Source of the DNA: Methanothermococcus sp. Ax23
GTDB lineage: Archaea; AGJL01; Methanococci; Methanococcales; Methanococcaceae
Reading direction: 5' to 3'
DNA length: 64,000 bases
NCBI RefSeq assembly: GCF_049075655.1
Contig: NZ_CP157522.1
Coordinates: 1,504,001-1,568,000, forward strand
In this document: positions 1 through 64,000 of the stretch, one piece after another
Layout of the letters: each line of letters starts with the position of its first letter
Numbering within the stretch: position 1 is the stretch's first letter
Notes under the pieces: generated by a model
Seen by the model: the letters and a program-made list of their open reading frames with translations, nothing else
Database searches by the model: none
What the model was told of the DNA's origin: nothing
Made by a program: the position numbers and the translations under genes

Positions 1-171
1 GATGTCTGTCTTGTGGGAGCTCTCGAAAATTCCGATAATGTATATGAGCTCGACACAACAAATAGAACTGTGGAATCCATAGTGGATGAGATAATTGATG
101 CCATAAATCATAAAAAAACCAAATATGGAATAGTTAATTGGTTAGATGATTATTTTTACATGCTGGATTAA
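1..171 (+). CDS. 3' end of adenylate kinase (AK6/Fap7-like), partial
   Basis: Frame 1 reads DVCLVGALENSDNVYELDTTNRTVESIVDEIIDAINHKKTKYGIVNWLDDYFYMLD*; the VYE(I/L)DTT...V(D/N)W tail is typical of archaeal AK6. Confidence 0.7.
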   Translation, partial: DVCLVGALENSDNVYELDTTNRTVESIVDEIIDAINHKKTKYGIVNWLDDYFYMLD

Positions 172-653
172 CAATATAAATATGAATAATCTTTAAATAC
201 ATACAATTTTTAATCTATTTTTTAATATTATTTTTTAATTATTTTATTTTTACGATAAACCGCCGAGAAGGTTCCAACGATTTTAATCGTTATACAAAAC
301 AAGGTTTTGTAAAATCTCTTACGAGATTGGATGAGAGGCGGACATCATTTTTTTATATGCTCCACTACATAATATATGAGTGTAATTAGAATAATAGCAT
401 ATATATAAATTTGGTGAATTCCATGCAAGTAACCAGAGTGCTGACAATAAACCTAACAAGAAAACTAACCAATGAACAATTAACAATCATAAACCATTTA
501 ACCTACTCAGCATCAAAACTCTGGAATACATCCAATTATGAAGTAATACTACAAAACATTGAACCAAATAAAATAGATGTTCAAATGAAGGATAACTTCT
601 GGTTTAAAAACCTACACTCACAATCAGCACAGGCAGTATGTCAAAAACTCTCA

Positions 654-700
654 ATTAGACGAAAACCTTCGGTTTTCGTTGCTCGCTTGCTACGCAAGCG
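654..700 (+). repeat. Two-hairpin micro-element (MJRE/REP-like) inserted in tnpB
   Basis: ATTAGA-CGAAAACC ttc GGTTTTCG-TTGCT-CGCTTGC tac GCAAGCG; its removal restores the tnpB frame. Confidence 0.9.
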
Positions 701-1093
701 ATAGCATGGCAAAACTACTTCAAACAGCACACTAAAAGACCACGATACCAACCAAAAGATGGACACTTTCCAGTAAAATGGAAGAAACAAGGTTTCAAAA
801 TCATAGGCAATAAGTTAAGGTTATCCCTATCAAAACAAACTAAAAACTATCTCAAAGAAAAGCATGTTATCAAGTCCAAGTACTTATGGGTAGATTTATC
901 GAAAACTCTACCGCTTGATACCACGCAGGTTAAAGAAGTTGAGATAGTTCCGCAGACCATCTATGGGATAACCTACCACATACTTCACTTAATCCATAAG
1001 AAACCAGTAATTCAAGAACCTATCAAAGAAGGTAATATACTAAGTATTGATTTAGGAATTAAGAATTTAGCAACCACAGTAACTAACACGGGC

Positions 1094-1141
1094 ATCAGGC
1101 GAAAACCTTCGGTTTTCGCTACTCACCAACATCAGTTGGTG
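1094..1141 (+). repeat. Two-hairpin micro-element, in-frame in tnpB
   Basis: ATCAG-GCGAAAACC ttc GGTTTTCGC-TACT-CACCAAC atca GTTGGTG; 48 bp; homologous to 654-700 and 18964-19010. Confidence 0.85.
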
Positions 1142-1821: not shown

Positions 1822-1841
1822 AAAAATTTAAAGTGGTTAGT

Positions 1842-2837: not shown

Positions 2838-3626
<789 letters not shown>

Positions 3627-3641
3627 TTAATAATAATATAA

Positions 3642-6597: not shown

Positions 6598-7905
6598 TTA
6601 TACTTGTAAAAGAGCTCTACCATTTAAATCTACAATATAACTCACATCGGGATTGGGTGGCATCAATCTCAACTCTCCTCTGGGTTCATCGGAGAGTAAA
6701 TCATCGACCTTCACCCCAGTCACGGGAACCCCAACTCCGCCTAATAATTTTTCAACTAATTTAATTCCTCTTTTAAATACATTAAAACAACCAACAAATT
6801 GCCTATTAAAATCCCCACAATTATTGCATTTAACAACCTCCCCCTCTTGGGACTCCATTCTACTCCCGCATACGGGACAGGTTTTTGAAGTGTAGTGGGG
6901 ATTAACATAAACAACAACACTCTTATACTCTAATTTCCCAGCTATTCTTCTCCAATTACTTCTATCTAAATCCCTATTGAATTTAGAGTTTTTACCATAC
7001 ATGTTAAACTTATCTAAATCTTCAAATACTAAAATTGCATTAGGAAAGAGTTTAGATAGTTGGGAAGTGAGTTTGTTAATAAAATCATTAACTCGATTTT
7101 TTCTCCTATTCCAGTATTTTCTAAGTAGTTTGCTAATCCTCTTAGGGGCTTTTTTATAGATTGATTTTAACCTATCGATTATTACATCATAAATCCCCTT
7201 AATCCTATGCAATTCAGACAAATCAACTCTAATCCAACCTTTTTCTGAGTGATATAAGTCCAATGACTTTAAATTACTATCAATTCCAATAATTACTTCC
7301 TTATCAGATAAATCCAACTGTCTTTTGAAGGTTATTAATGCCTCATTATCCTTTAAAATAACCTCTCCAACATTAAAGTTCTTAATTTTTTCGTAGAACC
7401 ACGCATCCTTAATATTTAAAACCAAATACTCCTTTCTCGGTTTTATGGTAATTCTTATATTTCCATTTTCTTTATCATGTCTTATTAGGGTGTTTTTAAC
7501 TCTAACAAAAGGTCTTTTGAATGTTGGTTTGTTTATTTCCCTGTTACCGTTTAAATAATTTGATTTCCAACTGTTTATTGTAGAGTAGGCGGTTTTAATA
7601 GCTCCATCGATATAATGAGATGCAAACTCCCAACCTTTTAATGAGTGATTTCTTAACTCTCTTTTGAAATCTTTATCCTTTGGAATTTCTGGGATTAGTC
7701 GAGTAGTTTTGTAGTATTTGTATTTCTTTCCTACTTTGTATCGATGTTTAATTGTCTTTTCTTTCCAATTTATATTTTTCCAAATAATATTAATGGCTTC
7801 ATTTAAGATTTTTAGAAATTCTTCTGGTAGGTTTTTTAAATCGTAATTGTGTTTAACTTTGTATGTTAGGATAATTTCGGTTGGGATTTTGTTTTTATTT
7901 GGCAT
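6598..7905 (-). CDS. tnpB: IS607-associated TnpB
   Basis: IGIDSN (RuvC-I), VFEDL (RuvC-II), PHYTSKTCPVC..CNNC; RuvC-III region reads NRQFVGCFNV. Confidence 0.9.
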   Translation of the reverse strand: MPNKNKIPTEIILTYKVKHNYDLKNLPEEFLKILNEAINIIWKNINWKEKTIKHRYKVGKKYKYYKTTRLIPEIPKDKDFKRELRNHSLKGWEFASHYIDGAIKTAYSTINSWKSNYLNGNREINKPTFKRPFVRVKNTLIRHDKENGNIRITIKPRKEYLVLNIKDAWFYEKIKNFNVGEVILKDNEALITFKRQLDLSDKEVIIGIDSNLKSLDLYHSEKGWIRVDLSELHRIKGIYDVIIDRLKSIYKKAPKRISKLLRKYWNRRKNRVNDFINKLTSQLSKLFPNAILVFEDLDKFNMYGKNSKFNRDLDRSNWRRIAGKLEYKSVVVYVNPHYTSKTCPVCGSRMESQEGEVVKCNNCGDFNRQFVGCFNVFKRGIKLVEKLLGGVGVPVTGVKVDDLLSDEPRGELRLMPPNPDVSYIVDLNGRALLQV

Positions 7906-8524
7906 TATCCACCCTTATGATTTCTTTAATTGTTTTGATAAGCTTTTTATACTTGTGAGAACGCATTCCCTAAAGCTTTCCTGCAAAGTGGGAAACAATT
8001 GTTATTAAATCTTCAACCAATTCTTCTTGTGGGGTCTTCTGTCGTTTGTTTATAATTACAATTTCAGTCCCATAAGATTTAAAAAACTCTTTTAACGTTT
8101 CAAAACCAAATCTCGTCAATCTATCTGAGTAAGTAATTATTACTTTCTCAACCTCTCGGTTTATAACCATTTTTAAAAGTTTTTTGTAGTTTTTCCTCTT
8201 TTCATTTAATCCACTACCAATATCTTTTAATATTTCCACATTCCAATTTAAATCTCTTGCGTATGATTTTATCATGTCTATTTGTCTTTCTAAATCATCC
8301 TTTTGTGTATTTGATGATACTCTTACATATCCGATAATTTTTCTTTGTTCTTTGTCTTTAATTCCTAAGATTCGTTTTATCTCACTCTCTGGAACTCTTC
8401 TCTTTCCTCCTATGGTTCTAACACATTTAATTTTTCCCTCCCTATCCCATTTTTGCAGTGTTTTTATATGAACTCCCAACAATTCACAAGCTTCCTTCAT
8501 CGTATATACTCTTTCTAAACTCAC
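7895..8524 (-). pseudogene. tnpA: IS607 serine-recombinase TnpA with a premature TAG at 7970-7972
   Basis: MerR-like HTH, GYVRVSS catalytic motif, DIGSG, DRLTRFG; reads HFAGKL*GMRSHKYKKL..., with the stop replacing the Tyr of the conserved LYGMRS. Confidence 0.8.
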
Positions 8525-23724: not shown

Positions 23725-25008
23725 TCAGAGCCCCGTAAATATTTTCTTCAAGTCAATATTTACATTTTCAACATATTCCTTTTGATTTTGCCCGTTGTGT
23801 TTTAAATTTATGGTTCTTATAAATAAATGTTCTTCCTCATTAAAGGCGTATTCTTTATTAAATTCTTTTTCGTATTTTGGATATAGTAATACTCCCTTTT
23901 TACAGTCGTATTTTTTTAAATAGGCAAACATTTGGTAGGCGTCGCTTTGATTTATATTGTAATTTTTAGTTTTATCGTCAATGAGATTTTTATATTTTGT
24001 ATCAATTATTAAAAATGGCTTGTTGGTGTTATTGGAGCTATAAACTACAATATCGGGCTTTAATCTAAAAGTGTTATTATTGTTTTCATCGGTCAATAGG
24101 TAGAGCTCACTATGTTGTAAGTGTATTACACATTCATTATTAAAAATTTCATCATAATGTTTTTTTAAAATAGTTCCGACAAATTCTTCAAATAAATAAT
24201 CCATGTTAAAAATTAAGGAAAAGGTTTTCAAATCCTTTGAATTTAAATTTGTTGATTCATTTAAAATAAACATTTTTGCCATTTCTATGTATGGCTTAAA
24301 CCTCTCGTTCATTCTGTTGAATTTTACTTTTTTAAAATCGTTAATAGTAATGGTTTTATAATCAATATCACTTAAAACAAAGCTTAAATCACTTAAAAGC
24401 TTCTTATTTTTTGGATTGTTTGTTATGTTTTTTAGGAGCTCTACGGCGTATTTAAAAATTTTATTTATTAAATTATTTTCTGAAAATTCCGCATATTTGC
24501 AGTATAATTTATGTTTATTTATATAATTATGTTTTATTTGCTTTGTGGTGTGTAGTTTTCCTTTTAAATATGTTAAATTTTCCTCTTTTTTGTTGTAGTT
24601 TTTGTAAATTCCGTTTTCAATCTCCTTTAATAAATTTTTAGCAAAAAGGTATATATAAATTTCAAATAAATCATTGTTCTTTGATAAATTTGCAAAATTT
24701 TCCTTAATTTTCAATTTCTTTGTGTATGAAAGCATATATAAAAGGTTGGTAAGTGCTTCTTTTTGTTTTTGTTCTTCGTTTCTTTCGTTTTTGTAAATTT
24801 TAGGTAGAATTTGAATTGTTGTGTTGTTTATTTTCAGAGCTCCTACAAATTGTTTTGCTTTTATTGTTTTATGCCCATCTTTAAAAATTTTTAATTTTCT
24901 GTTTAGTTTTATAAGTTTTAGGATGTCTTTTTTAGACATTCCGCAGTGTTTCAACTCCCCAAATGTTTTCCTTTCATGCTCAAAAAAAGTAATAGTTTTA
25001 TTTTTCAT
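23725..25008 (-). CDS. McrC-family restriction nuclease subunit
   Basis: IQILPKI, LKGKL, MDYLFEEFV, LKPDIV...IIDTKYK, DAYQMFAY, LLYP; overlaps/follows an McrB-like gene (unrelated to methyl-CoM reductase McrC). Confidence 0.93.
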   Translation of the reverse strand: MKNKTITFFEHERKTFGELKHCGMSKKDILKLIKLNRKLKIFKDGHKTIKAKQFVGALKINNTTIQILPKIYKNERNEEQKQKEALTNLLYMLSYTKKLKIKENFANLSKNNDLFEIYIYLFAKNLLKEIENGIYKNYNKKEENLTYLKGKLHTTKQIKHNYINKHKLYCKYAEFSENNLINKIFKYAVELLKNITNNPKNKKLLSDLSFVLSDIDYKTITINDFKKVKFNRMNERFKPYIEMAKMFILNESTNLNSKDLKTFSLIFNMDYLFEEFVGTILKKHYDEIFNNECVIHLQHSELYLLTDENNNNTFRLKPDIVVYSSNNTNKPFLIIDTKYKNLIDDKTKNYNINQSDAYQMFAYLKKYDCKKGVLLYPKYEKEFNKEYAFNEEEHLFIRTINLKHNGQNQKEYVENVNIDLKKIFTGL

Positions 25009-29077: not shown

Positions 29078-29354
29078 TGTTTCACCTATGTTGATTAATA
29101 TAGATTAATAATGTATTTCTCCAAACTGTAAAAATACATAAAATACATAAAAATGAAATACTAAATGAAAATATAAATAAAATATTATTTAAATTATTTA
29201 TAAATATACCTTATAATATATTATGCATCATAACATAAACAACTATTTTACAATATGTATATTTATTATGGTATTTTATTATAACATTTATTATAATCAT
29301 TATTTTAATAAAAAGGAAGAAAAAAGGAAAGAAAAAAGAATGAGAGGTATAAAC

Positions 29355-32375: not shown

Positions 32376-32534
32376 ATGATAATAGAACATATAATAACGG
32401 CGATTTTAGTAATATTGATATTGATTGTAATGATAAAGATAGTAGTATCTGCCATAAAAACCGCCTTTAAATTGGCGATAATGGGATTTTTGTTCATAAT
32501 ACTGCTTTGGATTGTATTGAAGTTTATATTTTAA
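32376..32534 (+). CDS. Small two-helix membrane protein (52 aa), missing from the ORF track
   Basis: GGTGGG RBS, then MIIEHIITAILVILILIVMIKIVVSAIKTAFKLAIMGFLFIILLWIVLKFIF*. Confidence 0.7.
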   Translation: MIIEHIITAILVILILIVMIKIVVSAIKTAFKLAIMGFLFIILLWIVLKFIF

Positions 32535-32560
32535 TTTTAATTCAATTTTTTGGTGAATTT

Positions 32561-33328: not shown

Positions 33329-33781
33329 ATGGGAAAGAAGTATTTATTAATTTTATCATGTTCAAAAACTAAAAAGAACATTGACCGAGCTCCTGCAATA
33401 GAGCTCTACGATGGTATGTATTACAGAGTTTTAAGAAAAAATTTTAATTTAAAAGATAATAAAAATTTAGATATTTTAATATTATCTGCAAAATACGGTT
33501 TAATAGATTCCAATGAAATAATTGATTATTACGACCAATTAATGACTTCAAAAAGGGCGGAAGAATTAAAAGATAGTGTTAAATCAAAATTAAAAGAAGT
33601 TCTAAAAAATAACAACTACGATGAAATATTTATCACCATGGGGGCAACATACGAAAAGGCATTTGATAGTGAATGTAGGGAGCTCCTACAAAAATACAAC
33701 ACTCACTGGATTGAGGGCATGATTGGGGAGAGGCTTCAACAATTGAAAAAATGGTTAATATCCATTAATAATGATAAATAA
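33329..33781 (+). CDS. DUF6884/YaaA-like protein
   Basis: LILSCSKTK..PAIELYDG.YY, ILILSAKYGLI, YYDQ.M motifs. Confidence 0.8.
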   Translation: MGKKYLLILSCSKTKKNIDRAPAIELYDGMYYRVLRKNFNLKDNKNLDILILSAKYGLIDSNEIIDYYDQLMTSKRAEELKDSVKSKLKEVLKNNNYDEIFITMGATYEKAFDSECRELLQKYNTHWIEGMIGERLQQLKKWLISINNDK

Positions 33782-33787
33782 AATAAA

Positions 33788-36106
33788 ATGCAGAATAGTG
33801 ATAATATGACATTGGAACTAAATGAATTTATAAACTCTATTGAAAATATATTGGGGTATGAGCTCAACACCAAACAGAAAGATGCCATACTTCACAAGGA
33901 TAATCCACTATGGGTTGTAGCAGGTCCTGGCTCCGGTAAAACTGAGGTTTTAGTGGTAAGAACTTTAAAGCTTATTTATGTGGATGGTGTAAATCCAAAA
34001 TCCATAATATTAACCACATTTACGAAAAAGGCTTCCCAAAATCTATTTAATAGAATTTTAAATTATTCAAATAAACTATGTGATATACATCCAAAATTAA
34101 AGGAGCTCAACATTGATATTCATAGCTTGAGAGTTGGAACACTTCACAGTTTATGCTCTGATATTATGAAGGAATATAAGTATATTGATTATGAAAATTA
34201 CAAACTAATGAATGAGATGGAAAATTATCTTTTTATATATAATCACTGCGAGCTCGTAAAGAACGGGGAGTTCTATAAAGAAGAATTATGGAAAAAATTT
34301 CAATATTTGGTTAAAAAATGGAACGCAGATAATAAAGAATGGTACATTGATACCAAAGATAAGGCAAGATTGGCTAAGGCAACTATTACATTATTTAATA
34401 GAATTGTAGAGGATAGGTTGGATTTGAATAAAATGAAGGTGAGCTCTAAAAAACACCACAGAATATTGGCAGAAGAATATGAAAAATTCATTGATAAATT
34501 GGAAGAATTTAAACTATGCAATTTTGCCACTGTGCAGTTAAAATTTTTAGAATTTTTAGATTCTGAGGACGGGGATTTATTTTTAAATGGTGGTGGGCAC
34601 AATCCAGAATTAAAATATATTATGGTGGATGAATACCAAGATACAAATCCTATTCAAGAGGAAATATATTTTAAATTGGCAAAGCATACTGAAAATAAAA
34701 ATTTATGTGTTGTAGGGGATGATGACCAGGCGTTGTATAGATTTAGGGGCGGGACTGTTGATTGTATGGTAAGGTTTGGTGATTCCTGCGAGAAAAAGTT
34801 GGGAATTCCAAAGGAGAATGTGAATAAAATATTTTTAAACTTAAATTATAGGTCTCATAAGGATATTGTAAAGTATTGCAATGATTATATAACATCCTTT
34901 GAGAAGTTAAAAAATGTTGAAATGGAAAAAGCAAGAGTTAAAGGTAAGCCACCATTAAAACCAGAAAAATCAATTAATGAAACATATCCTGCTTTAAACT
35001 ATCTCAAAGAAGAAAAAGATGAAGAATTAGCAAAAAAGGTTGTAGATGCTGTAAAATATTTTAAAGAAAATAGCATTATTGAGGATTACTCCCAATGTGT
35101 GTTATTAATCAAAAGCACAAGGGAAATAGATTATAAAGGAGAAAAGACCTTTATAGGACATGCTGTAAGTGAATTAACCAATAAGGGCATTGAAACATAC
35201 AATCCAAGGTCAAAGAACTTTTTAAGTCAAGAAGAAATAAAATTGGCATTGGGGGCATTCATATCTATTGTAGATAACGATTTGTATGTTCTGGAAAATA
35301 AACTGAGCTCTGAAAATATAAGCTCCGTTGTTGTAAATTGGTTTAATGAATATGAAAAAAATAAAGATAAATATCTAGAATTAAAGGAATATGTTGATAA
35401 ATCTGTCGAGAAAATCAAAAGTATGAAAGCAGGGAACTGGACAAATGCAACTATACAAGACATTCTTTATAAAATATTTGCATGCAGTCCTTTTTCAGAG
35501 TGGATGGATGACACTGAAAAAAGTTGTAGATTGGCAAAACTCACTCAAATATTTGATAGTTATTCATCAATACCTATGGATAATCCAGAGGTAAGCAGGG
35601 GAGCTCTGAAAATTGATTCGGAAGAGGATGGAAAAATTGACACTTTGTGGTTAATAAACTTTTACGGTTCTCTTGTTGGGCACTTTGTAAATGGGATGGA
35701 CGATTTAGAGGATGAGGAAGTAATAATTCCAGATGGGAAATTTCCTATTATGACTGTGCATCAGGCAAAAGGTTTGGAATTTCCAATAGTTTTCGTATAT
35801 GTTGAGAATTGGAAGGCTGAAGCAGATGCAGGCGCAAGATTGGAAGGGGAATTTTCAGAATACACAGATTTTAAAAGAATTACAACTAACCAATTCATAA
35901 AAACTAATCAAGACATGGTAAGATTTCACTATGTGGCATACTCACGAGCTCAGTATGGACTCATACATTTGTGGAGCTCCGAAAATTTGGAAAAGAGAAA
36001 GAGGAATAAGAGCAAATTGTATGGATTTATAAAAGGAAAACCAAATAATCTTGTAAGATATATTAAGAACCTCTATAATGGGAATGGTGCTAATAATACT
36101 TTATAA
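33788..36106 (+). CDS. UvrD/PcrA-like SF1 helicase
   Basis: AGPGSGKT, TFTKKA, GTLHS, VDEYQDTN, VGDDDQALYRFRG, NYRS, MTVHQAKGLEFPIVF, YVAYSRA. Confidence 0.95.
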   Translation: MQNSDNMTLELNEFINSIENILGYELNTKQKDAILHKDNPLWVVAGPGSGKTEVLVVRTLKLIYVDGVNPKSIILTTFTKKASQNLFNRILNYSNKLCDIHPKLKELNIDIHSLRVGTLHSLCSDIMKEYKYIDYENYKLMNEMENYLFIYNHCELVKNGEFYKEELWKKFQYLVKKWNADNKEWYIDTKDKARLAKATITLFNRIVEDRLDLNKMKVSSKKHHRILAEEYEKFIDKLEEFKLCNFATVQLKFLEFLDSEDGDLFLNGGGHNPELKYIMVDEYQDTNPIQEEIYFKLAKHTENKNLCVVGDDDQALYRFRGGTVDCMVRFGDSCEKKLGIPKENVNKIFLNLNYRSHKDIVKYCNDYITSFEKLKNVEMEKARVKGKPPLKPEKSINETYPALNYLKEEKDEELAKKVVDAVKYFKENSIIEDYSQCVLLIKSTREIDYKGEKTFIGHAVSELTNKGIETYNPRSKNFLSQEEIKLALGAFISIVDNDLYVLENKLSSENISSVVVNWFNEYEKNKDKYLELKEYVDKSVEKIKSMKAGNWTNATIQDILYKIFACSPFSEWMDDTEKSCRLAKLTQIFDSYSSIPMDNPEVSRGALKIDSEEDGKIDTLWLINFYGSLVGHFVNGMDDLEDEEVIIPDGKFPIMTVHQAKGLEFPIVFVYVENWKAEADAGARLEGEFSEYTDFKRITTNQFIKTNQDMVRFHYVAYSRAQYGLIHLWSSENLEKRKRNKSKLYGFIKGKPNNLVRYIKNLYNGNGANNTL

Positions 36107-36125
36107 ATAAATATTTGGTGAAAAT

Positions 36126-37061
36126 GTGCTATTTGAGACGCTTAACAAATATAAATCTTTAAAAATAAAAAAAGAAGAAGATAATGATAAAATAAAACAA
36201 AAATACAGCATTACCGCAGATATACTATCCTTTCAAATATGTAAAAGGCAGTATGGATTTAACACAGTTAAGGGGTTTAGCAATACTCAGGAAACTCAGG
36301 AATGGCATGGAACCTTAATTCATCAGGTTTTAAGCAGATTGCATGGAAAATATCTACATAATGTAAAGCTTAAAAATAAAGGAATAATTGGAGAAAAAGA
36401 TTTAATACCAACAGATAAAGATGTAGAGGAGCTCTTTAAAAAAGCAAATGAAGTTTTAAAATCAAGAGGTATTAAACCAAAAAGTAGGGAAAATGAGGAA
36501 AAAATACTAAATCTTTTAAAAATATTTAATAAAAGGGAAGGGAAAACACTATATCCAAGGATTGTTGATTCTGAGTTAAGATTGCAGGCAGATATGGGGG
36601 ATTACATACTATACGGGGTAATAGATGTCGTTGTTGAAGGGAATGAAGGCATTGAAATATGGGATTACAAAGGAATGAAATTTCCAGATTTAAACCGAGA
36701 CTGGGGAAAGAAAAAACTCAGAAGATATGAATACCAAATGCTTGTTTATGCCGAGCTCTACAAACAGAGGTTCGGGAATTACCCTTCAAAATGTGTTTTG
36801 TATTTTATGAATGAGCTCACTAAGGGGAGCCCCCCTTATTTGAAATATGTGATTGATTTTAACGATAAGAATAATATTGATAAAATTAAAGATGCAATTG
36901 AAGATTTTTCAAATACTGTTAAAAAAATAGAATACTGCAAGGAAAACAACAATTGGACTATTGATGAAAAAGAAAAGCCAGACAAAGAAACCTGTGATGT
37001 TTGCGATTTAAGATGGAGTTGCCCCGCAGTTAAGGGAAAATATGAGATAAAACCCCTTTAA
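36126..37061 (+). CDS. RecB/Cas4-like PD-(D/E)XK nuclease with a predicted Fe-S staple
   Basis: N-terminal C (FQICKRQY), GTLIH, GVIDV..EIWDYKG, QMLVYA, C-terminal CDVCDLRWSC. Confidence 0.9.
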   Translation: MLFETLNKYKSLKIKKEEDNDKIKQKYSITADILSFQICKRQYGFNTVKGFSNTQETQEWHGTLIHQVLSRLHGKYLHNVKLKNKGIIGEKDLIPTDKDVEELFKKANEVLKSRGIKPKSRENEEKILNLLKIFNKREGKTLYPRIVDSELRLQADMGDYILYGVIDVVVEGNEGIEIWDYKGMKFPDLNRDWGKKKLRRYEYQMLVYAELYKQRFGNYPSKCVLYFMNELTKGSPPYLKYVIDFNDKNNIDKIKDAIEDFSNTVKKIEYCKENNNWTIDEKEKPDKETCDVCDLRWSCPAVKGKYEIKPL

Positions 37062-37074
37062 ATAAGGATAGAAT

Positions 37075-37169
37075 ATTAGACAAAATCACTTCGTGATTTT
37101 GTTGTTTGTCCAAGCGAAGCGAAGGACAACTTAAAACCGTAGGTTTTAGGTCGCTTGCTACCGCAAACG
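37075..37169 (+). repeat. Four-hairpin micro-element
   Basis: ATTAGACAAAATCAC ttc GTGATTTTGTTG / TTGTCC..GGACAA / TAAAACC gta GGTTTTA / CGCTTGC tacc GCAAACG; same layout as 46327-46418. Confidence 0.85.
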
Positions 37170-37258
37170 ATAACACAACTGGCAATGATAAATCTAATAT
37201 AACTTATTATTTAATTAATTAATAAAATTTATACTAACTATTACCTATCGGTGTAATA

Positions 37259-38521
37259 ATGATAAGATATTTTTTACCAGACTGGGAAGACAGATTAGAC
37301 CCAAATTTTGATTTTATAAATGATGAATACTCAGAAGAACATAAAACGAATCCCTATGAAAATGATGTGTATGCTCACCAAATTTTTAAAGAGCCCCCTT
37401 ATGATGGTATTTTATTTAGTTTAAGCGTTTTTAAGTCTAAAATCTCATTAAACAATAAAAAAGAAATTTACAAAATAAGAAATCATACGAGCATAAAGGA
37501 TTATTTAAAAATCCCTAAAAACTCAAATTTAGAAGTAATGGGAGACTGTGGAGCATTTGGATATGTAAATGAAAAAGAGCCACCGTTGCCCTTTTACAGC
37601 GTTGAAAATGTTGCCAAATTATACCATAAATTAGGTTTTGATTATGGAGTAGCTCCTGACCATTTAGTAGTGGATAAAATAACGATAAAAGACGAAAACG
37701 GAAAGAAAAAGAAAGTTCCTCTTACTCAAAAAGAGAAAGATTATAGGATAAACCTTACTTTGGAAAATGCTGAAAAGTTTTTAAAACTACACAATAAAAA
37801 AGGATACAACTACATACCCATTGGGACAGCACAGGGTTATGATGTGGAATCCTATAAGAGCTCCGTTAAATCACTTGTTGATATGGGTTATAATTACATT
37901 GCTCTTGGAAGTCTTGTAGGTTATAAGACCGAATTTATATTGAACATACTTCATGGAATACAGCCTGTGATAAGTGAAGACATAAAAATCCATTTATTTG
38001 GTGTTGTAAGAATAGGAGCTCTGAAAAAATTTGAAGAGTTGGGAGTTAAAAGTTTGGACAGCACCTCATTTTTAAGAAAGGCATGGTTAAGGTCAGGTCA
38101 AAATTATATGAAAGATGGTAAAGGGTATGCTGCTATAAGAGTTCCCTATACTTCAAATCCGAGAACTACGAAGAAAGTATTGGAAAAAGGATATTCAATG
38201 GAGTATTTAAAAGAGTTAGAACGCCGAGCTCTGAAAACACTGTTAGATTATGAAAAGGGACTGATTGATATAGATAAGACTCTTGATATTGTAATGGAAT
38301 ATGATAAATTATTTTTAAGAAACTCGAGAGATGGGAAAAATTTAAGGGAAAAATATTATAAAACTTTAAAAGATAAACCTTGGGAATCCTGCGAATGCCC
38401 CATATGTAAAGAACTGGGCATACATGTGGTGATATTTAGGGGAACCAATAGGAATAAGAGAAGGGGATTTCATAATGTATGGGAGCTCAGGCGGATGATG
38501 AAAGGCAATCAAAATGTCTAA
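37259..38521 (+). CDS. dpdA: DpdA-like tRNA-guanine transglycosylase paralog (candidate DNA 7-deazaguanine transglycosylase)
   Basis: YFLPDWEDRLDP.FDF..D N-terminus, MGDCGAF, DHL, IGTAQG, IALGSL, IHLFG, SLDST, CECPIC...G..RNKRRGFHN; no ArcTGT C-terminal PUA domain. Confidence 0.85.
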   Translation: MIRYFLPDWEDRLDPNFDFINDEYSEEHKTNPYENDVYAHQIFKEPPYDGILFSLSVFKSKISLNNKKEIYKIRNHTSIKDYLKIPKNSNLEVMGDCGAFGYVNEKEPPLPFYSVENVAKLYHKLGFDYGVAPDHLVVDKITIKDENGKKKKVPLTQKEKDYRINLTLENAEKFLKLHNKKGYNYIPIGTAQGYDVESYKSSVKSLVDMGYNYIALGSLVGYKTEFILNILHGIQPVISEDIKIHLFGVVRIGALKKFEELGVKSLDSTSFLRKAWLRSGQNYMKDGKGYAAIRVPYTSNPRTTKKVLEKGYSMEYLKELERRALKTLLDYEKGLIDIDKTLDIVMEYDKLFLRNSRDGKNLREKYYKTLKDKPWESCECPICKELGIHVVIFRGTNRNKRRGFHNVWELRRMMKGNQNV

Positions 38522-38881
38522 TTATTTATGCGAAAAAAGAGAGCAACTCCAAAATTGTTGTTTTATGCATTAGAGTATGTTTTATGAGAAAATACATACC
38601 AATAATGTCTGACCTACTCCAACGAGTGAACTCGTTGGGTTCTCGCTTACGGTAGTAAGCGAGCAACGAAATCACGAAGTGATTTCGTCTAATTTTAGTA
38701 GGGTTTAACCCTACACGGGTGGCCAAGCCCACTACCCCTACCCATTAATGGGTTCAGGGCTACGCTATGCACTTCCAACCACTACCAGCGGTAGAGTTTT
38801 CACTAACCCTACCCATAGATACTTGGACTGGTAGCGTTACTTACTACTAATCTTCATATATTTATATTTTACTACTTACTA

Positions 38882-46418: not shown

Positions 46419-46420
46419 TT

Positions 46421-48079
46421 TTAATGATTTCCGGGAATAATTAAATCCCTTTCACCCGCAGGTTCAAACTCCCTCAGAGCTCCTTTTGCAATGCACTTTC
46501 TTGGCCACTTAAAGTCAAATACCAGGTGCTTATCTGCAAATGCTACTTTAACAAGTGGGTTAAAGCAGAAGGCGTCTCCTCTTGCAGCGTGTGGTGCCTG
46601 GGCTATACCTGTATATTCTGGCTGATGTCCTACATTCATGGCATAGTTTGGATAGTTTGGACCTCTTGCCTCATGCAATGCACCTTCGTCAGCTCTAATG
46701 GATACGGAGTTTGCTGCTCCACACTGGTCTTGTAAGTCATATCCATAGAACCCCAATCTACTGTGGTATTCTTTGTGTAATATCTGGCTTAGATACCATC
46801 CATTAATTCCAGCATTTGAATTTCCTGTGGCAAATGCAACGGAACAGCCTGCTGCTGCTGCAACAACTCCTGTCCTCTGAGAACCTCCAAAGTGGTCTTC
46901 CAATAATGTAGGGTATTCATCATACTGTTCCATACCATACAATGTTACTTCTGTCGCAATATCCCTCACAACATCCATCGAAGCCTCTACACCACACATC
47001 CCATATTTGTCTTCCACATAATCCTTTCCATAATACACAAAATCATCCAAAATATCATCTGTATAGGTCGCACTTGCATACTGTGTAAATCCTACCCCTC
47101 CTGACATGTAGGAGCCAAGCCATACTTGGTCGTAGAATGTTGCCGCAGCTCCGATTACCTCCAAGGTCACTTCCGCAGGGTCATCACATACCCTTGATGT
47201 TTGAATTATGTCGGCAAATACACCGAATGGAACTCCCCCTGGTTCATTTGCCCCTCTTGCCCTTCTTGCAGGAAGTATTGTTCCCATCTGGATAACATCT
47301 GCGTGTTTTGCCGCATATGAGAAATCAGCAATTGCAGCTTCCCCAGCACAGAGTTTGTATGCCGTAATAAATGACATTCCAATCTGCATAGCAGACCATC
47401 TTGAAACTGTTCCACCATCACAGCACCTTACAACTACTGTTGGAACCCTTGAAACCTGATATGTTTTATTTCCAATGTATTTTTTTAACATCTCTGCCTG
47501 TTCTTCTGGGAACTCTTTGTTTATGTCGATTAAAAATCTTTTGTCGAGCTCATCTGCTAATTCATCATTTCCTGTAAATATTTTTGCATAGCAATCCCAA
47601 ACTAAACCTGGATGAACCTCAACCATGTGCTCCTGAACAACGGCACCTCCTGGCAGTGCGTGATTAACTGTTTCCATATATTCGTTTATTGTTTCAGGCG
47701 TAACCTCTACACCGAGCCTTTTTTCAAGAACAGCATGTCCTGTGTCCATACCTACAATGACCGTCCTTTTAATATCATCTACAAGCTGCTGAATTGCCGC
47801 GTTATTACAAAAGTGCAAATCATCTCCTTCCACATACTCGTCTGTTCCAGATATTTTATAGGTCATTAATGTTCTTTGTCCCAATGGAACTCCAATATCT
47901 GGGTTGTATCCGGGAATTCCCCTTTTTGATGTTATTTCCTGAGCTGCTTCATAGAACTCTCTTTTTCTTGCAGACTGTTTCCATCCTCCGAAGCAGTAAA
48001 AGCTCGTGTATTTTTCTTTTGGGTCTTCTTCGAATTTTTCCTTCAACGCCTTTAAGAACAATTTCTTTTCAGCATCCAT
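46421..48079 (-). CDS. mrtA: Methyl-coenzyme M reductase II alpha subunit
   Basis: [54 protein letters not shown]; operon BDGA lacks C. Confidence 0.95.
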
Positions 48080-48882
48080 TATTCCTCACCTAATCTCTTT
48101 TTCAAATCGTGTTTAAATGCGTTCATTCCAAATCCGCCTTCACTCCTTGCCACATGTATTGTTTCAACAACCTCTAATGCCTCTTTGTCTTCCCTCATTC
48201 CAATATTGTCCTTTCTATAAATGGTCGTAATTTTTGCAAGATATTCTTGTGGAAGCGGTTCTCCAACATCTACTGGTTCATCCAAAGGTATTCCAACTTG
48301 TTCCTTTACATACAGAACATGCCCTGTTTTTTCATCGTAGATGTATCTCTGCAATCCATCAAACATGAGCCCATTTTCATCTAACCTCAATGAGTGCCCA
48401 TGCACAGTAGCTCCTCTCATACCACATGTTGCAGGGTCAAAGATTTCTGTTTCAACTAACCACTTTGAAATCTTTTCCAAGTCGAGCTCCCTTATTTCAA
48501 TAACCTGCCTTCCTGAGAGTGTCCCAGTATCTACTCCCCTAAATCTCCACATGTATGTTCTAGCTCTATCATAAGGTTGAGCTGGTGCGTTATACATAGA
48601 ATCTGCAAACTGAATATATCTAACCCTTATACCTTCTTTTGCTCCTTCAATTGGTTCTACAAGGTCTTTAATTGCATCCTCTTCAAAGTCCATTTCTTCC
48701 AATGGTGGGTGAACTGTTCTATAACTTTCTCCGGGGTTTCTATGTCCCAGAACTCTGACCAAATCATCATCTGAAATTTCCCTTAGTTTTTTTAATTCAC
48801 AGTTCGGGTCCATGTGCTTTCTTCTATTTTCACCTATTATCGTTTCCCCAGGGTAAAACTGCGGTTTATAATTCCCTTTCAT
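48079..48882 (-). CDS. mrtG: Methyl-coenzyme M reductase II gamma subunit
   Basis: [40 protein letters not shown]. Confidence 0.95.
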
Positions 48883-49377
48883 TTAATCACCTTTAATCAT
48901 CTTAACTTTATCAGAAGTTCTTGCAGTAGGGTCAGCCATTCCTATTAATCTAGGGTCTATTTTATCCTCAAACCCTTCTCCATACTTTAAATAGTCGGAA
49001 ACTGTTGGTTTTACTTTTGTAAATGCTCCCAAGTTCAAATTATAACCGAATGGGAATGCTTTTTTACATATTTCATCTAATTTTTCTGAGAGCTCTACAC
49101 TTTTTTCGTATGGAACTGTGATGATGAATTTCCCAACCTTAACGGTTAGTTCAACATCTTTCCCATTAACATTGATGACTTTCCTATCTGGATGATTTAC
49201 AGGGGTGCCTCTTGCAGGTCCGTAATAAACATATTTTGGTAAAGATTGACCATGAATAATTACCCTTATTATGTCCTTTCCAAGACTATAAATTGAATTT
49301 AACACTCTTTCAGTGGTTTCGGGCTTTAAATATCTGTAAGGGAATATTTGAATATCTACGGCTTTTATTTCTTCCAT
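48883..49377 (-). CDS. mrtD: Methyl-coenzyme M reductase operon protein D
   Basis: IFP.RYLKPETTE, HGQSLP..V.YGPARG.PVNHPDRK, F.K..PTVSDY.KYG. Confidence 0.93.
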   Translation of the reverse strand: MEEIKAVDIQIFPYRYLKPETTERVLNSIYSLGKDIIRVIIHGQSLPKYVYYGPARGTPVNHPDRKVINVNGKDVELTVKVGKFIITVPYEKSVELSEKLDEICKKAFPFGYNLNLGAFTKVKPTVSDYLKYGEGFEDKIDPRLIGMADPTARTSDKVKMIKGD

Positions 49378-49440
49378 AATTTCACCCATGAGCTTTAATA
49401 ATAAATATGTAGCAAGATAATGCACTAAGAAGGTTAAATT

Positions 49441-50775
49441 TTAAAGTTTATCTCTAATCTCTGAGACCCCCAAGGCAACATGCTTCAACGGCTCCCTCAG
49501 ATAGTCAATGGCACTATAAACCATACCTACCAATGAAGATGTTTTTTCAACGGAAAACATCTGAGTTCCTGCATCAAGGCACATGGCAGCGGCGGCACAT
49601 GGAATGGCAAATCCTTTACTATGTCTTGTAACTACGTGGTTTCCATGGAATGTTCCTGGACCTCCACCGCCGTAGATAGAATGACTGAAAAAGCTGAAAC
49701 CTACCCCAGTTCCCTCTGTTCTACCGAAATCAACACCCGGCAATCCAGTTTCATATTCAAGAATATCGTTGTAATAAAGCACCGTTGAAGCTACACCCTG
49801 TGCAGCCCTTGCTGCCCCAACATTCACCATAATGGATGCAACCAATCCCGCCGCTGCATAAGCATTCCACAATGCCCAGTCAGCAGGTTCATAAACTACA
49901 AATCCCGATGGCATGGTTTTTGATGGTTTAATTACTTTGTCCTCCAGAGCTCTTTCAACAACTGATGCTACAACAGTTCCCACTGTTCCGCTTTTACCGT
50001 TTTCTTTAACAATCTCATAAACAAGGTTGTTAGCGTTCAATCCTTGGAATGCTAAACCAAGTAAGTGGTATCTTTCAAATGCACCTACTGCATCCCCTGT
50101 TTCAAACATTGCCGTTTGTTCTAAAATGGATGACAACGCCACGGCATTTAATGTCTTTTTTCTTGTGATTGCCACGACGTGGTTTGCCATGATATTTCTC
50201 AACCCATATCCGAGACCTTCAAGCATTACAGGCGGACCAAGCAATGCCGCAATATTTGCACCGTGGAAATCTATTGATTGAGGATATCTTCCCAAAACCG
50301 CAGTTTTAATATTTGGTGCATTAAACATATTCACGTCAAAAGTATCAACTATTGACTGAGTTACCGCAGCTCCTGTGGCTAAGGTGGATATCGTATAATC
50401 GGCAGCTACTTTTAACCTCTTTGAAGGCAGCTGAACAAGCATTTGATTTCCATTGTTAATCAATTTAACAACTGTATCGTCCCCATCATGCACTTGAATC
50501 AGTTTTTTTACCTTTTCTGCAATAATTTCGGCATTTTCTACTATTGGCAAATCGAGCTCTCTCCCAGGGCAAACGCATGCCTTACCTCCAATTGCCCCAC
50601 TTTTTAGTGCATTCTGAATTCCAGACAGATTTACTGCAACAGACCTCTTAACATCGCCAATTATTTTCTCCACCGTTGGATTGATAATTGGGCTTATGGC
50701 GTCCAGTGGCACATTTTCTTCAAGAAGTTTTCCCTTCTCATCATACAAATCTATTTTATCTTCATATATAGTCAT
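49441..50775 (-). CDS. mrtB: Methyl-coenzyme M reductase II beta subunit
   Basis: [51 protein letters not shown]. Confidence 0.95.
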
Positions 50776-59635: not shown

Positions 59636-59798
59636 GAGCTCACCAAATTAATTTTTCTAAAAAAGATACTAATGTTAAATTATAAATAATGTTGATAAAA
59701 TAGAGCTCGTTGGAATATATTGGTGTCATGGGATACAATTAAAAATGTAAAATTAATATTAGATAAAATTATATAAAAAAGAAAAATTTATATTTTAA

Positions 59799-61949: not shown

Positions 61950-62049
61950 AATACCACCATATATAAAAAGTATAACCATTATAATTTATGTGTTGCATGA
62001 TATTTATATCTTGTCATAACGATGAATATAACTTATAGCAGGTGATATT

Positions 62050-63675
62050 TTGACTAATAACTTAGATGAAAAACTTGTTGAGATTTTGAGCATACTTTCA
62101 GAATATGATGAACCAGTTGGTGCCAAAACCATAGCAAACGAACTTAAAAGACGAGGTTATGAGATAGGGGAACGAGCAGTGAGATATCATCTTCAATTAT
62201 TAGATGAAAAAAACCTCACTGAAAAATTTGGATATTCTGGAAGAACCATTACTGAAAAAGGATTGGAAGAACTCAGTAAAGCAAATATATCATATAGAAT
62301 TGGCTCAGTATTTTCTCAAATAATGGAGAAACTTTATTTATCAAATTTCCCAACGAAGGTGATTATAAATAAAACTGTCTTTGAAGGAGATTATGAAATG
62401 ATAAGAGATTTGGTATTAAAAGTAATAGATAATGGATTCTCCATTGGCGATTATGTAAATATTAAAAAAGACAGTGAAAATCCGAACTTAATAAACATTG
62501 AAACATTATGTTCAATTACATTTGACAATTTTTTGTTAAAAAATGGCATACTTTCAATGCCAAAATATGGAGGTATTGTTAAATTTGAAGACTACGAACC
62601 GGTTTATTTTGAAGGAGTAATAGATTTTAGGAAATCATCCATAGACCCCTTAGAGGCATTTATTACTAGGGGAAAAACTGATGTATTGGGGATAATTGAA
62701 AATGGAGAAGGATATTTACCTGCCAATTTTAGAATAATTCCGAGCTCCATAATGGAAAAATTTGAGAACCTTTTAAAAAGAGATTTATTAAACGGTGTTT
62801 TAAGTTATGGTGAGGACAATGTATTGGGGCTCAGTTTAAACGAAGGAGAGATTGGTGTTGCCCTTGTTGGTGGTTTATCCCCAATATGTCCTGCTGTTGA
62901 AGATGGTTATCCTGTAAGAATTAATGCAGCCACAACCTTAAAGGATTTGTCCCTTATGGAAAAAAGAAATAAAAAATACCTGCATCCAATAAATAAGAGA
63001 GGGAAAGTTAAAATAATGCCTGTTTTATCAAAGATGCTGTCCATGCTGCATAATGTAAATTACGACATGGAAAGTGAAAAGGGAAATGTGCTTGTGAATA
63101 CCGGCTATGTTAATAAAAAATATGAAGATGAGGTTTTAGATGCGTTAAAAGAATGCTATGAAGCTAAAACAATAATATCCGATAGAATTGGAATAGAAAG
63201 AGCAGGCAATCAGATAGTAATAAACACATTATGTTCATCAACCATAGATGGTATTTTCGTAAAATACGGTGTTCCAATTATACCATATTACGGTGGTGTT
63301 TTGGAGCTCGGCAAAAATAGATTCATTGATATAATTTCCTATGAAGGAACATCATTGGACCCTCATGAAGTATTTTTTAACAGAGTCGATGGCGAAAAAA
63401 CAATTTTGTCGGGAGTAAGAAAAGTCCCAATGGCAGCAAGAGAAAGTTTAATTAACATCGCTGAAAAACTTAATTGGACGGGGATACTTGAAGTAGGAAA
63501 ACCAAACAATGATATTTGTGGAATAAAAGTTGAAAAAGGCATGTTTGGATTTGTAAGTATTGGTGGGATAAACCCATTTGTTATAATAAAAAATAAAGGC
63601 ATTCCTATTGAAATTGCAGCACTTCATGATATGAAAGAATATTCAGAATTAGTTCCATTGGAAGAATTATATTAA
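62050..63675 (+). CDS. nrpR: Nitrogen regulatory repressor NrpR
   Basis: wHTH (PVGAK.IA.EL..RGY.IGERAVRYHL) plus two NRD domains (TLCSIT.D, SIDPLE.F; TLCSSTIDG, SLDPHEVF). Confidence 0.95.
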   Translation: MTNNLDEKLVEILSILSEYDEPVGAKTIANELKRRGYEIGERAVRYHLQLLDEKNLTEKFGYSGRTITEKGLEELSKANISYRIGSVFSQIMEKLYLSNFPTKVIINKTVFEGDYEMIRDLVLKVIDNGFSIGDYVNIKKDSENPNLINIETLCSITFDNFLLKNGILSMPKYGGIVKFEDYEPVYFEGVIDFRKSSIDPLEAFITRGKTDVLGIIENGEGYLPANFRIIPSSIMEKFENLLKRDLLNGVLSYGEDNVLGLSLNEGEIGVALVGGLSPICPAVEDGYPVRINAATTLKDLSLMEKRNKKYLHPINKRGKVKIMPVLSKMLSMLHNVNYDMESEKGNVLVNTGYVNKKYEDEVLDALKECYEAKTIISDRIGIERAGNQIVINTLCSSTIDGIFVKYGVPIIPYYGGVLELGKNRFIDIISYEGTSLDPHEVFFNRVDGEKTILSGVRKVPMAARESLINIAEKLNWTGILEVGKPNNDICGIKVEKGMFGFVSIGGINPFVIIKNKGIPIEIAALHDMKEYSELVPLEELY

Positions 63676-63707
63676 ATAAATTTTTTTATTAAAATTTTAA
63701 AGATTTT

Positions 63708-64000
63708 TTATTGATATTTCATCTCTTTAATGATTTCTATAAATCTATTTAATACCTTTTCTCTTAATCCTTCAACAAACTTTAAACTTCCAGCACACTC
63801 GTGACCTCCGCCGTCTAAGGAAGCTTCTGGAATCTCTTTTATAAGCTGTTCTATTATAATATTTAGATTGAAGTTAAATCTTTCGCTAACTGCATCAGTT
63901 GCCCTAACAACACCAAAATCCGGACCATAAGATATTGTTATTATTGGTGTTTCTTCCCCGTATTTTTGAACTATGGAATCATGGGCAAAGCCACATGTTT
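63708..64000 (-). CDS. 3' end of a RecJ-like DHH/DHHA1 protein, partial
   Basis: KTCGFAHD...YGPDFGVVRA...DGGGHECAGSLKFVEGLR. Confidence 0.85.
   Translation of the reverse strand, partial: TCGFAHDSIVQKYGEETPIITISYGPDFGVVRATDAVSERFNFNLNIIIEQLIKEIPEASLDGGGHECAGSLKFVEGLREKVLNRFIEIIKEMKYQ

Follow-up and report, generated by a model that had tools for sequence, protein, structure and literature searches.

Introduction

The closest described counterparts of the word examined in this study, the hexamer GAGCTC in a 64,000-nucleotide stretch of the archaeon Methanothermococcus sp. Ax23 (NZ_CP157522.1, positions 1,504,001 to 1,568,000; the whole stretch is called the window below), are the highly iterated palindrome HIP1 of cyanobacteria (GCGATCGC) and the "alternate HIPs" of the same group. 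What HIPs do has been an unanswered question for some thirty years; they have been studied only in cyanobacteria, where the question is entangled with two methyltransferases. In the passages of PMC5861425 that concern it, HIP1 is over-represented 15- to 300-fold and conserved between genomes, and those of PMC13756078 describe higher transformation with donor DNA that carries HIP1 and propose the word as an uptake tag. GAGCTC shares with these words a short, GC-rich, perfectly palindromic sequence and a density of about one per kilobase (kb), strong enrichment (17-fold for the hexamer and 571-fold for an octamer form in one relative, G010), independence of reading frame, occurrence in coding and noncoding DNA, and conservation between genomes beyond the background. 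Its sequence also varies by lineage and it is absent from some relatives, as passages of PMC4390886 describe for HIPs. It differs from HIP1 in being archaeal, in being another word, in having AT-rich hosts (30-32% GC), and in having no cognate methyltransferase common to its carriers among the six families searched; it also shows no large-scale periodicity, while a periodicity of 10-90 kb is a criterion for HIP1 (Xu et al.). The trait was found in five of the 41 genomes searched, and not in most of a phylum.

The uptake signal sequences (USS) of Pasteurellaceae and the DNA uptake sequences (DUS) of Neisseriaceae are asymmetric words of 9-12 bases, recognised in competent bacteria by pilus or uptake proteins. 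GAGCTC is like them in its density near 1/kb, its lineage dialects, its presence in genes at a cost to protein sequence, its scarcity in acquired DNA and, in G010 only, some preference for gene ends; it is unlike them in being a perfect palindrome of 6-8 bp with weak flanks and in having archaeal hosts, for which competence is known from other members of the family and in which ComEC and DprA were not found. Chi, which works with RecBCD or AddAB, is a short over-represented self word that is asymmetric and skewed with the direction of replication. The resemblance here lies in an over-represented word of core DNA and in the pair of an AddAB-like helicase and a PD-(D/E)XK nuclease encoded in the window; however, a palindrome cannot be strand-skewed, and the helicase-nuclease pair was not found in the carriers G003 and G012. 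Very-short-patch repair (Vsr with Dcm) is held to inflate CCWGG-type words in Escherichia coli, and would be a parallel in that a sequence-specific bias of repair increases the number of a short palindromic word throughout the genome. That repair acts on one transition only, while in the present case sites differ from non-sites at all positions and the enrichment is far larger; moreover, Vsr was not found in the Ax23 genome, the only one searched for it, and no C5 methyltransferase (PF00145) scored above the cut-off in the four carriers of its genus. Restriction-site avoidance concerns the same class of short palindromes with the opposite sign, since here there is a 17-fold excess and no deficit.

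No report of over-representation of GAGCTC, or of the octamer GGAGCTCC discussed below, was found for archaea in the literature searched, although supplementary per-genome word tables might list it. The main text of Elhai 2015 contains neither "GAGCTC" nor "archaea," and the passages found of PMC4060949 and PMC4687349 do not mention GAGCTC. An archaeal HIP would be more tractable than the cyanobacterial ones: its close relatives are enriched, neutral, AGCT-avoiding, or have an 8-base dialect, and the group includes cultivable and partly transformable methanogens. Natural transformation exists in the family of Methanothermococcus, and archaea are reported to lack ComEC, according to the relevant passages of PMC10133366.

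Genomes and counting methods

The comparison set consisted of the Ax23 genome (G000) and 40 relatives, 41 genomes in all, with genus labels g1 (which includes G000), g2 (which includes G013) and g3; a phylum-level genome search returned the same 38 genomes and no additions. G000 has 1,662,948 + 7,732 bases and a GC content of 31.9%, and the window is G000:C1:1504001-1568000. Sequencing runs that contain this stretch were also found. Expected counts in the window came from 100 dinucleotide-preserving shuffles, and observed/expected ratios (O/E) of hexamers in G000 from order-0, order-1, order-2 and maximal-order Markov models. The gene map is crude, with 1,513 non-overlapping open reading frames (ORFs) of at least 100 amino acids (aa) covering 85% of G000; the codon controls were 30 synonymous shuffles within genes and, separately, codon-order shuffles. 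Maintenance of sites was assessed in a G000-G012 alignment of 54 kb only (84% identity) with a position- and base-matched third-codon background, and G000 was compared with G010 in 1,135 orthologous pairs (74% aa identity).

Abundance of GAGCTC

GAGCTC is a lineage-specific highly iterated palindrome held at about 1/kb by a directional force at the level of DNA, a force that makes no distinction between reading frames or between coding and noncoding DNA and has not yet acted on recently acquired DNA. The window holds exactly 87 copies, one per 736 bases, against an expectation of 4.07 (sd 2.01, maximum 9), and none of the 100 shuffles reached 87. The first-pass annotation of this stretch, made from its letters alone, had counted about 87 sites (roughly one per 750 bp) and expected about 4-6 by chance; both figures were accurate, as were the positions it named (17, 46, 33387 and 33401). 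The whole genome has 2,089 copies, 2,085 in the chromosome and four in the small replicon, or about one per 800 bases. GAGCTC is the top-ranked hexamer under the order-0, order-1 and order-2 models (O/E 16.8, 19.7 and 13.1); the next-ranked hexamers are words overlapping it, such as GGAGCT (7.8), and the second-best order-2 ratio among the 64 palindromic hexamers is 1.36. Genome-wide hexamer ratios had been proposed as a check on the initial claim, and at 13-20 they leave no other hexamer comparable. The maximal-order ratio is merely 1.6, but this test is circular because the model conditions on GAGCT and AGCTC, which are themselves built from the motif: GAGCT is followed by C in 2,085 of 2,578 cases, so that 81% of GAGCT lies inside the motif. 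As a description, then, GAGCTC is almost certainly a genuine archaeal analogue of the HIPs.

One-mismatch neighbours of GAGCTC, leaving aside those with GCGC or GATC in them, have O/E values of 0.5-1.2. The idea that the word is a "sink" draining its one-mismatch neighbours was dropped in view of these values.

Reading frames, flanks and spacing

The sites in G000 comprise 1,092 read as GAG-CTC, 615 as xGA-GCT-Cxx and 220 as xxG-AGC-TCx, with 158 in noncoding DNA or at gene edges, which bears out for the whole genome the earlier statement that all codon phases are used. Glu-Leu is written GAGCTC in 1,092 of 3,903 cases (28%), while codon usage would give 65.7 (1.7%); outside the motif, GAG and CTC are minor codons, with 25% and 6.6% of their families. 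Synonymous shuffles retain 187.5±12.3 sites (30 runs, maximum 218) and codon-order shuffles 111.9±10.4, compared with 1,928 observed in ORFs. The excess thus survives the codon-shuffled control that had been suggested for it, and the signal is one of DNA and not a peptide motif. Given the peptides and codon usage, O/E in G000 is 16.6, 9.0 and 10.2 by frame, and in noncoding DNA it is 16.9. There is no longer shared word around the sites, and the flanks in G000 show just G at -1 (38%), together with a weak preference for T(-5)/A(+5) that G000 and G010 have in common and that holds for every frame as well as for noncoding DNA.

Site spacing in G000 is near exponential (coefficient of variation, CV, 1.09). 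Spacings below 20 bp are fewer than expected (24 versus 52) and those of 20-50 bp are in modest excess (117 versus 75). Along the chromosome the density is even, with low-GC islands forming the largest gaps, and the ratio of variance to mean of site density is 1.04-1.21 in G000 and 0.83-0.96 in G010. Periodicity of 8-200 kb was not significant in either genome, the top spectral power lying under the 95% null in a test simpler than that of Xu et al. Sites are less frequent by about a third in the first tenth of genes than in the tenths that follow (130 versus about 195 in G000; G010 was surveyed likewise), which may come from start codons misplaced in the crude ORF map or from constraint near translation starts.

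Distribution among relatives and the octamer dialect

Five of the 41 genomes are hyper-enriched: G000 (2,089 sites), G012 (2,070), G010 (1,645) and G003 (1,321) of genus g1, and G013 (1,515) of g2. Counts in non-carriers are 4-115 in other g1 genomes, 26-128 in the rest of the family and 49-229 in the sister family. A single-gene tree, built from the Leu-type tRNA synthetase, unites the four g1 carriers in a clade (90/94 support) that is sister to g1 non-carriers and places G013 outside g1 beside a non-carrier, in agreement with the genus labels; the trait thus has a discontinuous phylogenetic distribution. The proposal of the first-pass annotation that this lineage has its own HIP is apt insofar as only five genomes carry the trait, but the distribution is patchy within g1, extends to g2, and takes the form of an octamer in G010. 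Site densities are 1.25/kb in G000, 1.24/kb in G012, 0.89/kb in G013, about 0.94/kb in G003 and, for the octamer, 0.80/kb in G010.

In G010, 1,259 of the 1,645 copies of GAGCTC lie in the octamer GGAGCTCC, for which 2.2 would be expected (571-fold). The frequency of G at -1 is 0.82-0.85 whatever the frame and 0.92 at noncoding sites; noncoding DNA has 262 octamers against 0.1 expected. Outer-position deviants of the octamer are just 7-14-fold enriched, and therefore the G010 lineage truly reads eight bases. The octamer is found 333 times in G000 (105-fold enriched, with no other palindromic octamer standing out), 335 times in G012, 184 times in G003, 191 times in G013, and 1-35 times in the other 36 genomes. 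Where genes converge, intergenic sites reach 2.03/kb in G010, compared with 0.83-1.07/kb in other intergenic DNA, a preference that is absent in G000. The octamers of G010 sometimes abut or nearly do so and form longer palindromes (six cases in each of two arrangements), mostly intergenic, and these pairs could be hairpin terminators.

Some relatives avoid the core of the word. The first 800 kb of G005 have an O/E of 0.11 for AGCT, and all NAGCTC words are rare there; small samples (about 20 kb) of G002, G007 and G008 contain six AGCT versus 58.5 expected (O/E 0.0-0.17). Restriction of the SacI type in these depleted relatives was considered and ruled out for G005, since it is AGCT itself that is avoided, and the samples of G002, G007 and G008 agree; a search for Pfam RE_SacI gave no match in the 41 genomes, but its control also gave 0 of 14, hence it is uninformative. 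Judged from these word counts, AGCT avoidance in the branch of G005, G002, G007 and G008 suggests an AluI-type restriction system. G004, a close relative of the avoiders, is near neutral for GAGCTC (94 sites).

Maintenance, turnover and protein cost

The sites are actively maintained. In 54 kb of G000 and G012, 53 sites are common and 12 are private to each genome. Third-codon C within sites is conserved at 0.90 (n=48), versus 0.41 in the background (n=1,923), and third-codon G at 0.88 (n=48) versus 0.55 (n=2,303). Third-position divergence is 0.095 in sites, 0.278 at 1-3 nucleotides (nt) from them and 0.25-0.30 farther out, so the protected footprint is exactly the 6 bp and the flanks are unprotected. 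G003, the closest relative of G000 (about 90% identity), lacks eight G000 sites in 14 kb and has none of its own, and may be losing sites or have lost whatever maintains the word; sites alignable in G000, G003 and G012 number just 11 (five common, three missing only in G003, two only in G000, one only in G012), too few to polarise the changes.

Between the more distant G000 and G010, 405 sites coincide in orthologues, while 1,209 are found in G000 only and 739 in G010 only. Where a conserved Glu-Leu is written with the word in G000, G010 also has it in 209 of 619 cases (34%), compared with 112 of 1,214 (9.2%) where G000 does not. The coincidence is one of shared ancestry or shared permissiveness, with much turnover. 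Some protein sequence has been rewritten by the motif. At G000-only sites the G010 protein differs in 43%, 71% and 82% of cases in frames 0, 1 and 2, against a rough background, derived from the 74% identity, of about 45%, 59% and 59%. Ala-Pro, encoded within GGA-GCT-CCn, is the most G010-biased dipeptide in these orthologues (379 versus 160). Relative to G005, G000 has gained Glu-Leu (671 versus 429) and Ala-Pro (134 versus 57), although base composition also differs between the two. Writing 28% of Glu-Leu with a rare codon pair, and inflating Gly-Ala-Pro in G010, matters for codon-usage models, for the detection of horizontal transfer, for construct design and for the choice of restriction enzymes; unless modification protects the sites, SacI would cleave G000 DNA once in about 800 bases.

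Site density is 1.52/kb in core genes and 0.84/kb in non-core genes, in keeping with the earlier claim that sites are scarcer in recently acquired DNA. Among genes of at least 1.5 kb, 6 of 125 core and 11 of 45 non-core genes have no site.

Search for the machinery

No DNA methyltransferase is common to all five carriers in the six families searched, and enzymes outside these families would be missed. Beside the absence of PF00145 matches above cut-off in G000, G003, G010 and G012, strong matches to the N4/N6 family PF01555 number two in G000 and one in G010, with G003 also having them and G012 none. Gamma-class PF02384, Eco57I-type PF07669, Dam PF05869 and D12 PF02086 enzymes include none common to the five carriers, and G010 has no strong match in any of these. 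None of the five clear DNA methyltransferases of G000 has an orthologue in G010, and the methyltransferase-like genes that are conserved between the two occur also in the non-carrier G005. Since no common methyltransferase was found, iteration is separated here from methylation. The sole strong PF01555 enzyme of G010 adjoins an MjaI-family endonuclease (L069:6895-8851, minus strand, equal to G010:C1:206895-208851) and therefore belongs to a CTAG-type restriction-modification (R-M) pair; it has an unusual C-terminal fusion to a staphylococcal-nuclease-like domain. ACGT (41 copies in 1.57 Mb), GATC and GTAC are all but missing from G010, while only one R-M methyltransferase was detected in it, so that either those systems are gone or the methyltransferase census is incomplete. 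G000 has likewise nearly purged GATC (O/E 0.03), GTAC (0.07), ACGT (0.10) and CTAG (0.14), and it also avoids the hexamers CTGCAG, CTCGAG, CTTAAG and CTATAG and words of the GTNNAC type. The purged palindromes of the two genomes are a mark of heavy past restriction pressure.

MutS, MutH and NucS/EndoMS gave no match in G000, G010, G012, G013 and G005, with a positive NucS control in Methanocaldococcus jannaschii, so some other route of mismatch repair must exist in these genomes. Modification-directed repair, which the first-pass annotation had offered as one option, therefore finds no gene support: no common methyltransferase was detected in the six families, no Vsr in G000, and no MutS, MutH or NucS in the carriers searched. 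Two synteny screens were made for genes present in G000 and G010 and missing in G005, of which 800 of 1,504 kb was covered. The strict screen gave nine genes, for a glycosyltransferase-like protein, ribosomal and other small proteins, a ferritin, a P-type ATPase and spurious ORFs, with no plausible nuclease; the loose screen gave 82, of which the ten most divergent were inspected and were housekeeping-like.

The densest stretch of sites in the window, with 18 GAGCTC in 5.2 kb (3.5/kb), is a module at 33329..38521, all on the plus strand, that from its gene content is probably an archaeal Dpd-type DNA modification or defence island. It encodes a DUF6884/DpdC-like protein of 150 aa (33329-33781; weak DpdC similarity, E 7.9e-7), a UvrD-like (AddAB-like) helicase (33788-36106) and a PD-(D/E)XK nuclease (36126-37061), both assigned by profile matches, and DpdA (37259-38521; NF041059 at 426.6 bits with a cut-off of 200, PADLOC DpdA at E 1.2e-123), which we take to be a DNA-guanine transglycosylase inserting 7-deazaguanine into DNA. 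DpdA and the helicase are found in four of the 41 genomes, namely the carriers G000, G010 and G013 and the non-carrier G032; neither was found in the carriers G003 and G012, where the module is missing at the syntenic place. The gene order is conserved and the load of the word follows the host, with 3.5/kb in G000, 2.8/kb in G013 and 12 sites, 10 of them octamers, in G010; the G032 module has none, and the 11 kb of G032 inspected showed no iterated palindrome of another kind either. Being absent from two carriers and present in a non-carrier, the module is neither necessary nor sufficient for the trait. The G000 helicase is 84% identical (aa) to that of G013 and 66% to that of G010, compared with 73% and 76% for the Leu-type tRNA synthetase. 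This similarity, together with that of the methyl-coenzyme M reductase (mcr) operon described below, points to flow of DNA between carriers of different genera, and the module may share its exchange partners with the palindrome trait.

Possible explanations

The roughly 17-fold enrichment would correspond, we infer, to a scaled advantage per site of about ln 17 = 2.8. Perfect dyad symmetry and the shift of dialect from six to eight bases suggest a dimeric sequence-specific protein that varies by lineage and can be gained or lost. It is a strong possibility, if not quite a probability, that a methylation-independent and horizontally spreadable system in a few Methanococcales lineages both installs and protects a palindromic self word, to a density of about 1/kb, with a specificity that evolved from 6 to 8 bases. 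As to its role, we tentatively favour a "self" tag: when DNA is exchanged or recombined, GAGCTC would be read segment by segment, in units of about 1 kb. A putative sequence-specific reader would recognise the palindrome as self in each such segment; tagged alleles would preferentially be taken up, recombined or spared, as with bacterial uptake sequences or Chi, and this preference would both create and conserve sites. The carriers have similar densities (0.8-1.25/kb) though the chance expectations of their words differ about 50-fold, which suggests a force per DNA segment. The tag is favoured because of these densities, the dialects, the patchiness, the signs of exchange among carriers and the gene-end preference of G010, and also because the family has naturally transformable species (PMC10133366, in the passages cited above) and HIP1 has been proposed as an uptake tag (likewise in PMC13756078).

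Several points weigh against the tag. No protein emerged that would bind the word or serve it in uptake or recombination; ComEC was found in none of the 41 genomes, and DprA in no carrier, its only matches being in the non-carrier G019 and, below threshold, in G040. Known uptake sequences and Chi are asymmetric 5-12-mers, while a perfect palindrome is typical of R-M-type enzymes. The competent model species presumably belongs to genus g3, which shows no enrichment (66-103 GAGCTC). Spacing is near Poisson (CV 1.09; variance/mean 0.83-1.21), with little of the evenness that a force per segment should produce, and the similar densities could simply be inherited, as 405 sites occupy the same orthologous place in G000 and G010. 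Finally, any reversible bias of equal strength would by our reckoning predict the same excess and a roughly five-fold lower divergence within sites, so that these data do not discriminate.

If such a bias is the cause, a sequence-directed mismatch repair that needs no methylation could supply it: a putative endonuclease of restriction fold would see the heteroduplex and repair it toward the strand with the perfect word. A single efficiency of about 0.9 would then yield both the 17-fold excess, as (1+e)/(1-e), and the about 5-fold lower divergence within sites. The 6-bp footprint, the equal enrichment of noncoding and coding DNA, and the near-Poisson spacing without periodicity all fit, as does a palindrome of 6-8 bp, which suits dimeric restriction-type enzymes that family models often miss, and another repair route is needed in the five genomes where MutS, MutH and NucS were not found. 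We nevertheless regard this repair as rather doubtful, since Vsr is lacking in G000, no candidate enzyme emerged, the inspected genes of the two screens (9 and 82 genes) included no plausible nuclease, and a constant bias per site fails to explain the similar densities of a 6-mer and an 8-mer; the conservation of HIP1 between genomes is, moreover, read in the relevant part of Xu et al. (PMC5861425) as selection and not as replenishment by repair. The same authors proposed for HIP1 that sites bind an abundant nucleoid or chromosome-organising protein and are each under weak selection. For GAGCTC this is unlikely: conservation above the matched synonymous background, enrichment in core genes (with 6 of 125 long core genes lacking a site compared with 11 of 45 non-core) and the weak T(-5)/A(+5) flank preference in G000 and G010 agree with it, but neither genome has the large-scale periodicity of HIP1, the flanks are not conserved between G000 and G012, close relatives manage without the word, which would make the function dispensable or replaceable, and no candidate protein was found.

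Methylation-directed repair is, we think, less likely than the tag. In the form of an Elhai-type ratchet, a cognate orphan methyltransferase would mark GAGCTC, and methyl-dependent repair or strand discrimination would drive sequences toward the word. In passages of PMC4390886 the cyanobacterial HIPs each have a methyltransferase of matching specificity and occur at about 1/kb, a density equal to that seen here; every carrier has at least one methyltransferase with no assigned specificity, and the census is possibly incomplete, to judge from the avoidance of ACGT, GATC and GTAC in G010 with its one detected R-M enzyme. The ratchet is made distinctly improbable, however, by the lack of C5 enzymes above cut-off in the g1 carriers and of a strong PF01555 match in G012, by the pairing of the PF01555 enzyme of G010 with an MjaI-family (CTAG) endonuclease where PF02384, Eco57I-type, Dam and D12 enzymes gave no strong match, by the want of G010 orthologues for the five methyltransferases of G000, and by the failure to find Vsr (in G000), MutS or MutH. 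The McrBC of Escherichia coli cuts DNA containing G-mC; that G000 keeps an McrBC pair may be a weak further sign against cytosine methylation of GAG-C-TC. A link to the Dpd module is very improbable, though it would provide a concrete reader of the Chi-like kind: a G within GAGCTC would be the target of DpdA, and self DNA modified in this way would be spared by the neighbouring AddAB-like helicase-nuclease or would bring it to a halt. Three of the four genomes with DpdA above cut-off are carriers, the same holds for the helicase, and no other stretch of the window is as rich in sites as the module, but the carriers G012 (2,070 sites, 99% complete) and G003 lack both proteins, G032 has the complete module with 130 GAGCTC in its genome and none inside the module, and the association (3 of 5 versus 1 of 36) may reflect kinship, mobility of the module and shared exchange partners. 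That no special mechanism is at work, the word being a by-product of codon, dicodon or peptide usage, of a dispersed longer repeat or of chance, is scarcely credible. The maximal-order ratio of 1.6 and the commonness of Glu-Leu would suit it; the former is circular, shuffles give 188 and 112 sites against 1,928, noncoding DNA is enriched 16.9-fold in G000 and holds 262 octamers against 0.1 expected in G010, there is no longer word around the sites, and no other hexamer or palindromic octamer behaves alike.

Should the tag hold, it would be the first archaeal signal for DNA uptake or recombination; biased repair would be a new sequence-directed repair where MutS, MutH and NucS were not found. 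Either would make a second, independent and genetically tractable model for HIP biology. Since close relatives differ in state, the responsible gene should be findable by whole-genome phylogenetic profiling.

Other features of the window

The sites of the window start at 17, 46, 3486, 3519, 4695, 4998, 5658, 5978, 6122, 6245, 6612, 9347, 9733, 11313, 11331, 11524, 12401, 13472, 14156, 14280, 14432, 14500, 16075, 16792, 18843, 22547, 23054, 23591, 24103, 24436 and 24837; at 27210, 27300, 27862, 28532, 29637, 31143, 31422, 31579, 31785, 33153, 33263, 33387, 33401, 33680, 33860, 34103, 34250, 34441, 35305, 35601, 35946, 35974, 36429, 36753, 36813, 37858, 38016, 38226 and 38483; and at 41168, 43063, 44385, 45847, 46477, 47546, 48484, 49090, 49947, 50554, 52106, 53163, 55062, 55602, 56314, 56643, 57212, 57519, 58013, 59260, 59371, 59636, 59703, 61699, 61762, 62742 and 63304.

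Genes named below were assigned with Pfam. The first-pass annotation had seen no site in an IS605 element, an IS5-like element and an McrB-like gene. This is so for the McrB-like AAA ATPase (25019-27046, minus strand) and for the DDE transposase of an insertion sequence (IS; PF01609, 38929-39897, plus strand), around which no site lies between 38483 and 41168. It is not so for the IS605/IS607-type element (6598..8524, minus strand), whose tnpB (6598-7905) has one site near its 3' end, at 6612, while its serine-recombinase tnpA (7970-8524) has none. McrC (23725-25008, minus strand), which is adjacent to the McrB-like gene and forms with it a PF10117/PF07728 pair, has three sites (24103, 24436 and 24837). 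The IS with the DDE transposase (window 38600-39926) recurs in G000 at five or more further positions, C1:1389724-1390768 among them, at 86-100% identity, and its copies are apparently all young; a 275-bp segment just upstream of the transposase (window about 38600-38882) is separately repeated elsewhere in G000.

The mcr operon (McrA, McrG, McrB and one more ORF; 46421-50775, minus strand) has sites at 46477, 47546, 48484, 49090, 49947 and 50554. Over 46420-49396 it shares 94% DNA identity with G013, which belongs to another genus, where 72-85% is typical, and all four aligned sites are common to both; the best match of G012 to the mcrA part is 77% and is located elsewhere. From these identities the operon (46420-49396, probably to 50775) looks like a recent horizontal transfer between lineages. 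A small ORF with a Bud32/MAD6-like protein-kinase fold (32507-33301, plus strand) lies directly upstream of the Dpd module; G013 and G010 also have it next to the module, while G032 does not. The class-I (Leu-type) tRNA synthetase (29223-32264, plus strand), which served as the tree marker and as a test case for orthologues, has five sites; in a comparison across 15 genomes, G003 keeps three of these, G012 four, and G010 two, with three of its own. At these sites the AGCT-avoiding genomes write GAACTT.

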